Below, piece after piece: positions 17,233-26,744 of a stretch of 27,342 bases of DNA. The notes under the pieces are model-generated. The model did not search any database. It saw nothing but the letters and a program-made list of their open reading frames with translations, and was not told the DNA's origin. Source of the stretch: a virus (lineage: Duplodnaviria; Caudoviricetes); the IMG/VR virus record IMGVR_UViG_3300025803_000081, positions 1-27,342 of that record; one strand, written 5' to 3'. Both the position numbers and the translations under genes were made by a program. Position 1 is the stretch's first letter, and every line of letters begins with the position of its first letter.

Positions 17233-17269
17233 AAAAACCCCACCCCCCCGCTACGCAGAGAGATGGGGT
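17231..17269 (-). terminator. Intrinsic terminator of the leftward transcript
   Basis: Minus strand ACCCCATCTCTCTGC-GTA-GCGGGGGGGTGGGGT-TTTTTT: 15-bp stem with four G.U pairs that work only on this strand. Confidence 0.85.
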
Positions 17270-17319
17270 CACCACCAATCGAGGCCCACAACGGGAACAC
17301 ACACCCGGCCTCGGAAATA

Positions 17320-17478
17320 TTATACAGTATACGTACTCAGTAGTTCTTTGAGTCTACGCTTTTCGTCCTGTAGTTCCTTTCTTTGCTCGGTCATACGCTC
17401 GATGCGGTACGATAGGATACGGGACTCATTGCGGATCATTTCGATCTGAGTCTGTATGCGTTCTAGGTTTTCATTCAT
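17320..17478 (-). CDS. Small coiled-coil protein (MNENLERIQTQIEMIRNESRILSYRIERMTEQRKELQDEKRRLKELLSTYTV)
   Basis: 52-aa ORF not in track; heptad pattern; own promoter upstream and terminator downstream. Confidence 0.75.
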   Translation of the reverse strand: MNENLERIQTQIEMIRNESRILSYRIERMTEQRKELQDEKRRLKELLSTYTV

Positions 17479-17484
17479 AAATGC

Positions 17485-17513
17485 AAGCTAGGTATTTGTG
17501 TTTAATTTGTCAA
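17485..17513 (-). promoter_or_regulatory. Sigma70-type promoter TTGACA-N17-TAGCTT, 6 nt upstream of ATG 17478
   Basis: Perfect -35, 17-bp spacer, -10 with conserved T,A,T positions. Confidence 0.7.
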
Positions 17514-17522
17514 GTTAGAGGT

Positions 17523-17588
17523 TGGTGGAGGTGGCTGGAGTCGAACCAGCGTCCTTAACCGAGGTTAAGTCGAAATCCCTGCACCCCC
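17523..17588 (-). ncRNA. ssrA: Minimal tmRNA-like RNA: tRNA-like domain only, no tag reading frame
   Basis: GGGGGTG-CAGGGATTTCGA-CTTAAC(CTCG)GTTAAG-GAC-GCTGG(TTCGACT)CCAGC-CACCTCC-ACCA: acceptor stem with G3.U70, A73 and CCA, stemless tmRNA-type D-loop, 3-nt GAC linker, T-arm. Confidence 0.85.
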
Positions 17589-17912
17589 TTGTTTGTATTC
17601 CGGTAAGCCGAACTTCTTTCTCCACTTGGTGTACGACGAATGCGCTACGTCGCAGCACTCACAAGCCAGTCGATAGGTGTACCCATCATCACGCAGCCCG
17701 TCCACCTGCTCAATAATTTTTAACTTCTGTTCATCGGTCAGCCGTTGGCTGGGTTTTCTTTCGACCGTTGGGATTGTCCACTCAGCCGTGCCGTACTCCT
17801 CCTCCATGTACTCGATGTCCTCGATTTCTTTTTTGATTCTCTCGTGCGCCCAGTCCAGAAATTTACCCTGCTGGCTCCTGTCGTTGAAAAATAATTCGTC
17901 ATTGATATGCAT
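17565..17912 (-). CDS. Helix-turn-helix DNA-binding protein
   Basis: 115 aa; C-terminal LTDEQKLKII...TYRLACECCDVAHSSYTKWRKKF HTH pattern; TAATG-coupled to dnaB. Confidence 0.7.
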   Translation of the reverse strand: MHINDELFFNDRSQQGKFLDWAHERIKKEIEDIEYMEEEYGTAEWTIPTVERKPSQRLTDEQKLKIIEQVDGLRDDGYTYRLACECCDVAHSSYTKWRKKFGLPEYKQGGAGIST

Positions 17913-19237
17913 TACATAAACCTTCCTGTTTGGTGATAGAATTTTAAATAGTCCCCTACGTCACGTTCACCCTCACGATTCTTTGCTATCCTGTAAGAGA
18001 GTCCAGTGTAAGGGCCTCGGTAATCTTTGTCCTTGCTGGATTCAACATCTCCATTGTAAGGCCACATAAGCATCACGATGTCGGCATCGTTCTCAATATC
18101 GCCGGAGTCCTTGAGGTCGTACAGGCTTAGGCCTGTCTCCCTCTTGGCTCCTTCACGATTTACTTGAGCGAGCAGTACGATTGAGACGTTGAGGTCCAGT
18201 GCTATCTCTTTGATTCTGTGGCTGATGCCGGCGATCCCCTCTGCCTTGCTTAACTTTGAGTTAAACCCGATCAGTTGGAGGTAGTCAATGACGATGAGCT
18301 TAACGCCCTTCTTCCTGACTAGGTATCTGGACTGACTGGCGAGGTCATCAGCACCCTTGACTGAATGAACAGTACTGATAGGCAGCCCCGCTAATCGGTC
18401 AGTCGCTTCACTGAAGGCTGTGATGTCCTGCGGCGTAGCGTAACCCTGCTCAATGGAACGGATGTTCACTCCTGATATGGTCTGAACCATCCGCTTCATC
18501 AGTTGTTTCTGCGGCATCTCGAAGGAGAAGTAAGCAACGGGTGTCCCTTGGTCGATCATAGTTCTCGCTGTGATGTACAGTGCGAGTGCTGACTTCCCGC
18601 AGGAGGTGGGTGCTGCAAGTGTAAGCACTTCCCCGGCGGCGATCCCTCCGTTCCCTAGGAATCCGTCCAGCCTGCCGACATTTGTTTTGACTACATCGGC
18701 TACGTACTCACCGGACTGCATTAGTTCGATGTCCGATACGATGGAGTCCAAGGACTCCTTGACGCTGTACCCAAGTGAGTCACGTGAATTAATCTCGAGG
18801 ACATTGGTCTCGAGTTCGGACCGAATGTCATTGAACTCATAGCCCTCGCTGGTTGCCTTCTCCTGAGCGATCCGGCACTCCCGGATAAGTTTTCTCAGGT
18901 TAGACTTCTCGGCTACCAGCCTAGCGTAATGCAGGGCCTGTGGCTCCGTTGTAGCGGAGTCCATGAGGGACATGATACCTGTTACTCCCCCGATCTCATC
19001 CAGCGTATTTGACCCCTTCAGGGCCTCGCAAAGGTGGATCTCGTCGATGGGTAACCCAGTGTTGGCCAGCTTGTGGAGAGCTTCCCAGAGGAATCTCCCA
19101 CGTGCTGAATAAAAATCGCCAGCGTTGACGATGGTTGATGCGGTGTCGAAGACTGACGAATCGGATGCATCCAGACAGGATGCGATCAGGCTAGTCTCGG
19201 CTTCTAAGTTATGCGGTGGTGCGTTTTCTTCGTTCAT
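17912..19237 (-). CDS. dnaB: Replicative DNA helicase, DnaB family
   Basis: PPHNLEAE N-domain, Walker A AAPTSCGKS, FSFEM, IVIDYLQL, LAQVNRE, LKDSGDIENDAD, IAKNREG; start placed at ATG 19237. Confidence 0.95.
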   Translation of the reverse strand: MNEENAPPHNLEAETSLIASCLDASDSSVFDTASTIVNAGDFYSARGRFLWEALHKLANTGLPIDEIHLCEALKGSNTLDEIGGVTGIMSLMDSATTEPQALHYARLVAEKSNLRKLIRECRIAQEKATSEGYEFNDIRSELETNVLEINSRDSLGYSVKESLDSIVSDIELMQSGEYVADVVKTNVGRLDGFLGNGGIAAGEVLTLAAPTSCGKSALALYITARTMIDQGTPVAYFSFEMPQKQLMKRMVQTISGVNIRSIEQGYATPQDITAFSEATDRLAGLPISTVHSVKGADDLASQSRYLVRKKGVKLIVIDYLQLIGFNSKLSKAEGIAGISHRIKEIALDLNVSIVLLAQVNREGAKRETGLSLYDLKDSGDIENDADIVMLMWPYNGDVESSKDKDYRGPYTGLSYRIAKNREGERDVGDYLKFYHQTGRFM

Positions 19238-19379
19238 CCTGAAGTATCTCCATGATTGAACGTAAGCACTGACCAAGAGCTTTGTATTTCACCTGCACTT
19301 CTGGAGTGAACTTGTACGAATCAATTGAATCGTAAAGGTTAAGGGTGATTTCGGTGGCTTCTGATATGTGTTCGTTCAT
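19209..19379 (-). CDS. Small hypothetical protein (MNEHISEATEITLNLYDSID...ERRKRTTA)
   Basis: 56-aa ORF not in track, fills gap upstream of dnaB, A-rich upstream region. Confidence 0.6.
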   Translation of the reverse strand: MNEHISEATEITLNLYDSIDSYKFTPEVQVKYKALGQCLRSIMEILQDERRKRTTA

Positions 19380-26524: not shown

Positions 26525-26732
26525 GTTTGTGTTTACCAATTCGTGTCCCCCTTGCTACGTCATCGAGGTCGGCCTGCTGGCCGTCCCACCCCTCCACTTC
26601 CAGAGAGGCCATCCGAGGTATCACCGTGTCGGAGTCCGGTCGCCCACATGTGATCCAAAGTGTCTTGGTGGCTTCTGATGGATCAGAGATGCGAGGTGCG
26701 AAGTCCGAGGTCGGAGTCGGTAGCGGTTGGAC

Positions 26733-26744
26733 TGTCAAAGATCA
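26733..26744 (-). promoter_or_regulatory. boxA-like antitermination sequence TGATCTTTGACA
   Basis: 10/12 identity to E. coli rrn boxA TGCTCTTTAACA, oriented with the early transcript and upstream of terminators. Confidence 0.55.

Follow-up and report, generated by a model that had tools for sequence, protein, structure and literature searches.

Products of non-stop messages get tagged. In tmRNA, the 5′ end is made by RNase P and the tRNA-like domain (TLD) is bound by SmpB (PMC3985003). What could a tmRNA do that has no tag to give? One such phage RNA is on record, the 'TLD only' tmRNA of mycobacteriophage DS6A (tmID 11587; PMC4131195 and PMC11915505, citing Mao et al. 2009), and a similar tag-less RNA is described as inhibiting tmRNA in E. 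coli whether it could be charged or not (PMC4131195; the inhibition also in PMC11915505). Tag-less mitochondrial tmRNAs co-occur with SmpB, and it has been suggested that they help with incomplete mRNAs (PMC11915505). A second theme is the message that loses its stop by processing. In phage T4, a maturation cut between the last codon and the stop is proposed to down-regulate an accessory gene, segB, which adjoins tRNA-Arg (PMC2330249). The smpB coding sequence of Carsonella extends into the tmRNA gene ssrA, in half of the strains only, and a non-stop feedback is proposed by the authors (PMC4131195). In selB-selC an ORF runs into or through the tRNA with a Gly-first tail, a layout that is conserved yet lost in some lineages; a non-stop mRNA was proposed there as an untested idea (PMC8124441). 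The arfA gene of E. coli makes its working protein as a non-stop product, the level of which reports on trans-translation (PMC8012679).

The locus described here resembles all of these and matches none. Its RNA is, as in DS6A, a phage tmRNA cut down to the tRNA-like domain with no tag frame, but it is 66 nt long and overlaps a gene; the passages on DS6A mention no gene overlap, and the two were compared by description, not sequence. DS6A is a mycobacteriophage, whereas the phage studied here is described as podovirus-like, uncultured and aquatic. Compared with segB, which involves an ordinary tRNA and a homing endonuclease, the excised RNA is a part-copy of the rescue machinery itself. Carsonella, a reduced endosymbiont, has a full tmRNA and the gene of its own partner; here a tag-less phage RNA meets an unrelated helix-turn-helix (HTH) gene. 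The selB-selC pair is chromosomal and has a clear functional tie between protein and tRNA, and no such tie is known for the HTH protein and the mini-tmRNA. The arfA case rests on an RNase III cut or a terminator, concerns a rescue factor and was shown experimentally, whereas the cut here is predicted, by RNase P, and the protein has a DNA-binding fold. Both themes, the tag-less tmRNA and the non-stop message made by maturation, are known; our literature searches, which reached few subscription papers, did not turn up their combination, a phage gene that overlaps a tag-less tmRNA.

A tRNA-like domain at the end of the replication arm

The window, the whole stretch of 27,342 nucleotides that was analysed, is a linear virus record and about 75% complete. 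Its virion arm lies on the plus strand and its replication arm on the minus strand, the latter encoding an exonuclease, endonuclease VII, Erf, SSB and DnaB (Pfam, PHROG) and ending in the order dnaB, HTH gene, RNA, 52-aa ORF and terminator-like hairpin. The nearest named record is phage C75C1, with a DnaB 42% identical and a similar gene order. The features at the end of the arm are the following.

17912..19276, minus strand: DnaB helicase (Pfam DnaB and DnaB_C; PHROG 19), upstream of the HTH gene in the same predicted transcript.
17565..17912, minus strand: 115-aa HTH ORF, with a long helix at the N-terminus and a three-helix HTH at the C-terminus; the start ATG and the dnaB stop overlap (TAATG).
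17523..17588, minus strand: tag-less tmRNA of 66 nt, tRNA-like domain only (Rfam RF00023, fold, covariance model, covariation).
17565..17588, minus strand: HTH/RNA overlap, with seven codons (GGAGIST) plus TAA belonging to the RNA as well; RNase P is predicted to cut between 17589 and 17588.
17485..17513, minus strand: sigma-70-like promoter candidate downstream of the RNA (perfect -35, 17-nt spacer, 3/6 at -10; consensus match only).
17320..17478, minus strand: 52-aa ORF, function unassigned, last gene of the replication arm; this ORF stands 3′ of the RNA in L030 too.
17236..17270, minus strand: intrinsic-terminator-like hairpin closing the replication arm.

Elsewhere, at the head of the early arm, a RAGATH-24 RNA match occupies 26543-26738 on the minus strand (47.1 bits against a cut-off of 45.3, with a 94-nt insertion).

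The RF00023 match at 17588-17523 (57.6 bits, E 2.4e-20) covers both tmRNA ends, and only 2 nt replace 310 positions of the model, so that the mRNA-like domain with its tag frame and pseudoknots is absent; ARAGORN called no tmRNA at this locus. What is left has a 7-bp acceptor stem with G3-U70, discriminator A, an encoded CCA, an open D-loop, a 6-bp P2 hairpin and a T arm. This is a tRNA-like domain with alanine identity (G3-U70, discriminator A, CCA) and no anticodon arm, and it belongs with the DS6A-like TLD-only RNAs, being virus-borne and having a short P2 that joins both TLD halves. Our own covariance model scores it at 79.4 bits, and folded alone the RNA is weak (z -1.61). Among nine distinct sequences of the clade, covariation is present in all three helices, with 9 of 18 pairs changing on both sides and 95.7% of alignment cells paired, in an alignment fitted to our own model and biased towards structure to that extent; none of 500 shuffles reached the covariation score, and slid controls dropped to 38-55% paired. 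All nine share G3-U70 and have identical terminal acceptor pairs. One aberrant T loop was seen, in the mini-tmRNA at L152:2624-2689, which scores 48 bits all the same.

How common are such RNAs? A pattern scan gave at least 119 viral stretches, with an estimated total of about 130; in the genome collection a slightly looser pattern matched 8. TLD-only RNAs are therefore mainly viral, and widespread. The eight matches in bacterial assemblies (L388-L395; they include Saccharibacteria, Acidimicrobiales, Sinomicrobium, Prochlorococcus, Christensenella and Mycobacterium) are probably viral contigs or prophages. L011-L128 hold about 70 distinct TLD-only RNAs; most measure 80-84 nt and bear an additional internal hairpin on P2, and tRNA clusters are the setting of several. 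The mini-tmRNA of the window had no close DNA match among 50,697 phage records. An attP remnant of host ssrA was also considered and ruled out, both RNA ends being present and covarying; no integrase match was found among the 30 ORFs scanned of the 131 listed on this contig of about 75% completeness.

In the 400 nt upstream of G1, the first base of the RNA, no sigma-70-like promoter was seen for the window type (the scan covered sigma-70 types only). The sole perfect -35 site lies downstream of the RNA, as does a similar site in L143, and the candidate there could drive the 52-aa ORF, not the RNA. In L215, L222 and L263 the RNA starts a few bases 3′ of a terminator-like or hairpin-plus-T sequence. 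Within the mRNA of the window the acceptor pairs are predicted to form with a probability of 0.84 (0.65 for the seventh pair). Of 12 loci folded in context, 9 favour the acceptor stem, the others being L143 (0.01), L231 (0.03) and L263 (0.39). Eight public runs were found, one of them on record as RNA; all are assembled contigs, hence blind to ends and strand. In run X1 the summed depth is 466-2144 on the RNA against 7-42 beside it, but at two variant positions all of the depth belongs to another allele common to several loci, and DNA is a possible source; the depth is given no weight here.

The HTH gene and its missing stop

The initial annotation had placed the HTH stop inside the mini-tmRNA and G1 exactly on a codon boundary, and both placements are correct. 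The ORF (17912-17565, minus strand; 115 codons) runs seven codons and a TAA into the RNA, its translation ending in LPEYKQ followed by GGAGIST, and the TAA (17567-17565) lies within the 5′ strand of helix P2. The 324 nt from 17912 up to 17588 make 108 codons, so that codon 109 begins with G1 (17588).

What kind of protein would be left if the message were cut there? It matches Pfam HTH_Tnp_1 (E 9e-6), its structure model (pLDDT 81.5) has helices at residues 6-40, 60-75, 80-86 and 91-100, and a homologue search gave 91 matches at E<=1e-3. Fold searches with the model returned nothing at E<=1e-3, the weak matches being HTH-type proteins. We had considered an ArfA/BrfA-like rescue factor; this is ruled out, as the Pfam and PHROG families are HTH only and the fold matches are HTH proteins. 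G1 lies 11 residues past a YxxW motif that closes the last helix of the model, and the median distance from YxxW to the natural end is also 11 (range 1-20) in 46 homologues with YxxW of 85-115 aa, taken regardless of RNA. Because G1 falls after the last helix and at the median C-terminus of the family, the truncated HTH would be a complete domain of family length, lacking only the stop in its message.

It seems reasonable to assume that dnaB, the HTH gene and the RNA are co-transcribed. Host RNase P, to judge from how tmRNA 5′ ends are made, would likely cut the shared transcript at G1 (17589/17588), leaving a stop-less HTH message from which a 108-aa, full-size HTH protein is predicted to be made, tagged and destroyed. 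Making the mini-tmRNA would thus likely turn the accessory HTH gene down. Ribosomes on the overlap may in turn compete with folding of the RNA. Most likely the arrangement was inherited, is tolerated or even mildly useful where the gene is accessory, and is weeded out by selection where it is essential; it need not be a tuned sensor. We see about an even chance that this attenuation, coupled to processing, is an inherited side effect, either tolerated or mildly useful.

Is the missing stop a peculiarity of the window? Of the seven HTH lineages with DNA across the junction to a downstream RNA, six reach G1 without meeting a stop: the window type, L144/L145, L133/L143, L147, L132 and the P0008 type, whose junction is a loose contig end at 17597 in runs X5 and X6, translated and matched by hand. 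The HTH cores of these lineages are about 40-61% identical to the window protein. The exception is L226/L263, a cluster of 15 members whose HTH gene stops 100 nt short of the same RNA type and is separated from it by a hairpin. The C-terminal peptides of P0003, P0005, P0095 and P0098 look like a translation of the RNA; being protein only, these four stand outside this count, as do tails of the P0007 type and the short ones of P0096/P0097 and P0120/P0125, which have no DNA tie. A conserved lack of an in-frame stop before the processing site, the pattern of a non-stop-regulated gene, is therefore found in all but L226/L263.

The details are not conserved. The six stop-less lineages divide evenly between G1 at codon position 1 and G1 at position 3, and the stop is at +8, at +22 (TAA or TGA, with P2 compensated) or past the RNA at +86 and +89. 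The tail measures from 2 to about 30 aa, and its length, its frame and the RNA allele vary even inside the P0003 cluster (at least 90% identity), where it takes four forms, one of which may be a contig end; the tail is for this reason not a conserved part of the protein. A second-frame read-through in P0135 comes from a single contig and is a possible error. The significance that the initial annotation saw in the codon boundary has to be given up as a 1-in-3 coincidence, and a stop in helix 2 as a conserved device is likewise rejected, because both vary. As far as these sequences tell, what persists is the missing stop itself, not its position, the frame or the tail. Had the stop been lost by chance in the window, relatives should have theirs upstream of the RNA; L226/L263 does, but the other six lineages overlap, so the overlap is not a one-off stop loss.

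L226/L263 has a feature of its own. At L263:1555-1572 a G-run and the last 7 bases of the RNA stand in the 3′ end of the HTH gene, at the same +11 position, and an intact copy follows 140 nt downstream behind the hairpin. The 7-mer is present in 0.2% of 40-nt windows, and the L263 match was noticed after the fact. The site is likely the scar of a mini-tmRNA copy whose interior was deleted, which suggests that the overlap is ancestral and escapable.

In a core tree of 47 rows, built without the tails and without 4 partial rows, the overlap label has to change three times, with at least two of the changes forced by supported branches. One supported clade joins 12 overlap rows with 15 that lack the RNA, the partner of P0008 is the uncoupled L226, and 16 HTH rows have no RNA nearby. 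The HTH gene and the RNA are each found without the other, and in L154/L155 the RNA is upstream of the HTH gene. Eighty dnaB relatives fell into 21 clusters at 90% (one dropped for its short flank, one counted in two states): 5 with HTH and RNA, 3 with HTH only, 2 with RNA only and 11 with neither (Fisher p 0.056). A neutral model in which each saturated codon is a stop with probability 0.051 is not rejected, since it puts P(no stop) at 0.12-0.77 when lineages number 5-8 and free codons 1-5; conservation of the overlap is therefore no proof of selection. Inheritance would also give a conserved overlap, with the encoded Erf protein presumably recombining phages at the RNA they share.

These data bear on a bolder reading, in which the arrangement is a selected feedback or sensor circuit. 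One cut would yield both a non-stop HTH message and an RNA that titrates SmpB; HTH protein made early would be destroyed, and later it would accumulate once trans-translation is blocked, acting as a timer or a report of takeover. The overlap in six of seven lineages sits on two separate supported branches, the uncoupled L226/L263 carries the likely scar at +11, and HTH and RNA tend to co-occur among the dnaB clusters; the inhibition of E. coli tmRNA by a similar RNA (PMC4131195, PMC11915505) and the regulation of arfA as a non-stop mRNA (PMC8012679) fit as well. However, the neutral model stands, L226/L263 is uncoupled, the order in L154/L155 is reversed and 16 HTH rows do without the RNA. No HTH target is known, and blocked rescue would strand the HTH protein on stalled ribosomes unless another release route exists. 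We regard a selected circuit as possible if rather doubtful.

Other genes that meet the RNA

The HTH gene is not the only one found at G1. In five lineages (L030, L150, L154, L156, L152) dnaB itself is directly upstream of the RNA, and in all five it keeps its stop, with gaps of 0, 1, 6, 12 and 35 nt; these lineages are related and do not count as independent events. Three HNH endonuclease genes have their start codon at the very beginning of the RNA.

L149:797-1192: HNH endonuclease gene.
L150:2588-2983: HNH endonuclease gene.
L156:2602-3003: HNH endonuclease gene.

The G of their ATG is G1 and they read in frame through the entire RNA, so processing of the RNA would remove the HNH start. In L146/L148 the HNH gene occurs without the RNA, and L157 has neither the RNA nor an obvious ATG there. 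With these genes included, the circuit may be put as a single RNase P maturation event that would give a trans-translation inhibitor and a non-stop regulator message (or, in the sister phages, an HNH gene stripped of its start), the regulator being a timer that reads the state of host rescue; we offer this tentatively and would not be surprised to see it fail.

A further overlap involves an unrelated conserved ORF in the tRNA-rich phages L214/L218/L230, which has 60 codons before G1, meets the mini-tmRNA with G1 at codon position 1 and has its stop in P2. It had no PHROG match, and synonymous changes exceed non-synonymous ones in 3 of 3 pairs, an apparent sign of purifying selection. Elsewhere G1 is the last base of a TAG, in a terminase-small-subunit-like gene (L069 1498-1501) and in a family of exonuclease genes (L020, L034, L084, L114), which suggests that such cuts can be harmless or rare. 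A cut there leaves UA, and one may speculate that poly(A) addition could complete a UAA. Frames of 2-5 codons with ATG or GTG starts enter the RNA at codon position 1 in L154, L152 and L042/L070/L083; these may be remnants of deleted genes or chance.

Do mini-tmRNAs overlap genes more often than tRNAs do? A survey with a crude gene caller covered 84 mini-tmRNA loci with distinct upstream DNA, of which 8 follow another RNA and were set aside. The remaining 76 comprise 13 overlapped loci, 4 in which a TAG ends on G1, 3 with an ORF starting at the RNA and 56 separate ones. Control tRNAs, taken from one of the 64 parts of the collection, numbered 247, of which 125 were set aside, and 5 of the other 122 were overlapped. 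The automated excess (17/76 against 5/122, Fisher p 1e-4) shrinks with the HTH rows removed and the exonuclease family counted once (10/69 against 5/122, p 0.022), and is not significant when only ORFs judged plausible by hand are kept (5/69 against 2/122, p 0.10). It is suggestive only, because our searches for HTH and dnaB genes enriched the mini-tmRNA set and because several of the overlapping frames are shadow ORFs.

Could the overlap simply be inert compaction? The RNA would then be a mobile module that related phages swap by recombination, and its maturation would be late, rare or confined to a separate transcript; the HTH protein would be made normally with a harmless junk tail, and non-stop mRNA would be negligible. 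The same type of RNA does stand behind many different genes and in front of different downstream genes, most scored loci (56/76) are separate from the upstream ORF, and stops abut G1 in L030, L062 and L231. Tight packing is seen on ordinary tRNAs too: the first G of the tRNA-Arg at L231:1745-1821 is the middle base of the TGA of the upstream gene. The HNH read-through implies that some unprocessed mRNA is translated, and the excess over tRNAs fades with plausible ORFs. On the other hand, in none of the five lineages does the RNA cost dnaB its stop, which is what one would expect of a cut that matters; nor did a separate promoter come to light, and the automated counts exceed those of the control tRNAs in both the full and the reduced set. 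We judge compaction without effect unlikely.

What maturation would mean for the phage

It is highly improbable that the RNA acts as a tag-less rescuer, in which alanyl-RNA and SmpB would take the stalled HTH chain and free it untagged, restoring the output of the upstream gene: charging looks selected, given the acceptor bases invariant in nine of nine sequences, and the mitochondrial suggestion (PMC11915505) points the same way, but the effect reported for a similar RNA is inhibition, charged or not (PMC4131195), and an RNA with no reading frame has no stop for release and would need another factor.

Attenuation of the HTH gene by maturation of the RNA is thus the reading we prefer: the consequence of processing is likely, and the feedback circuit is plausible and not distinguished from tolerance. 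DS6A is the only phage example of a tag-less tmRNA named in the literature consulted here. The clade offers natural paired alleles, overlapped, abutting, separated and start-codon-fused, in a cassette of 400 nt. If processing limits the upstream protein, this would give experimental backing to a mechanism only proposed so far for segB, smpB and selB. If the feedback is true, it would mean a phage that senses host ribosome rescue.
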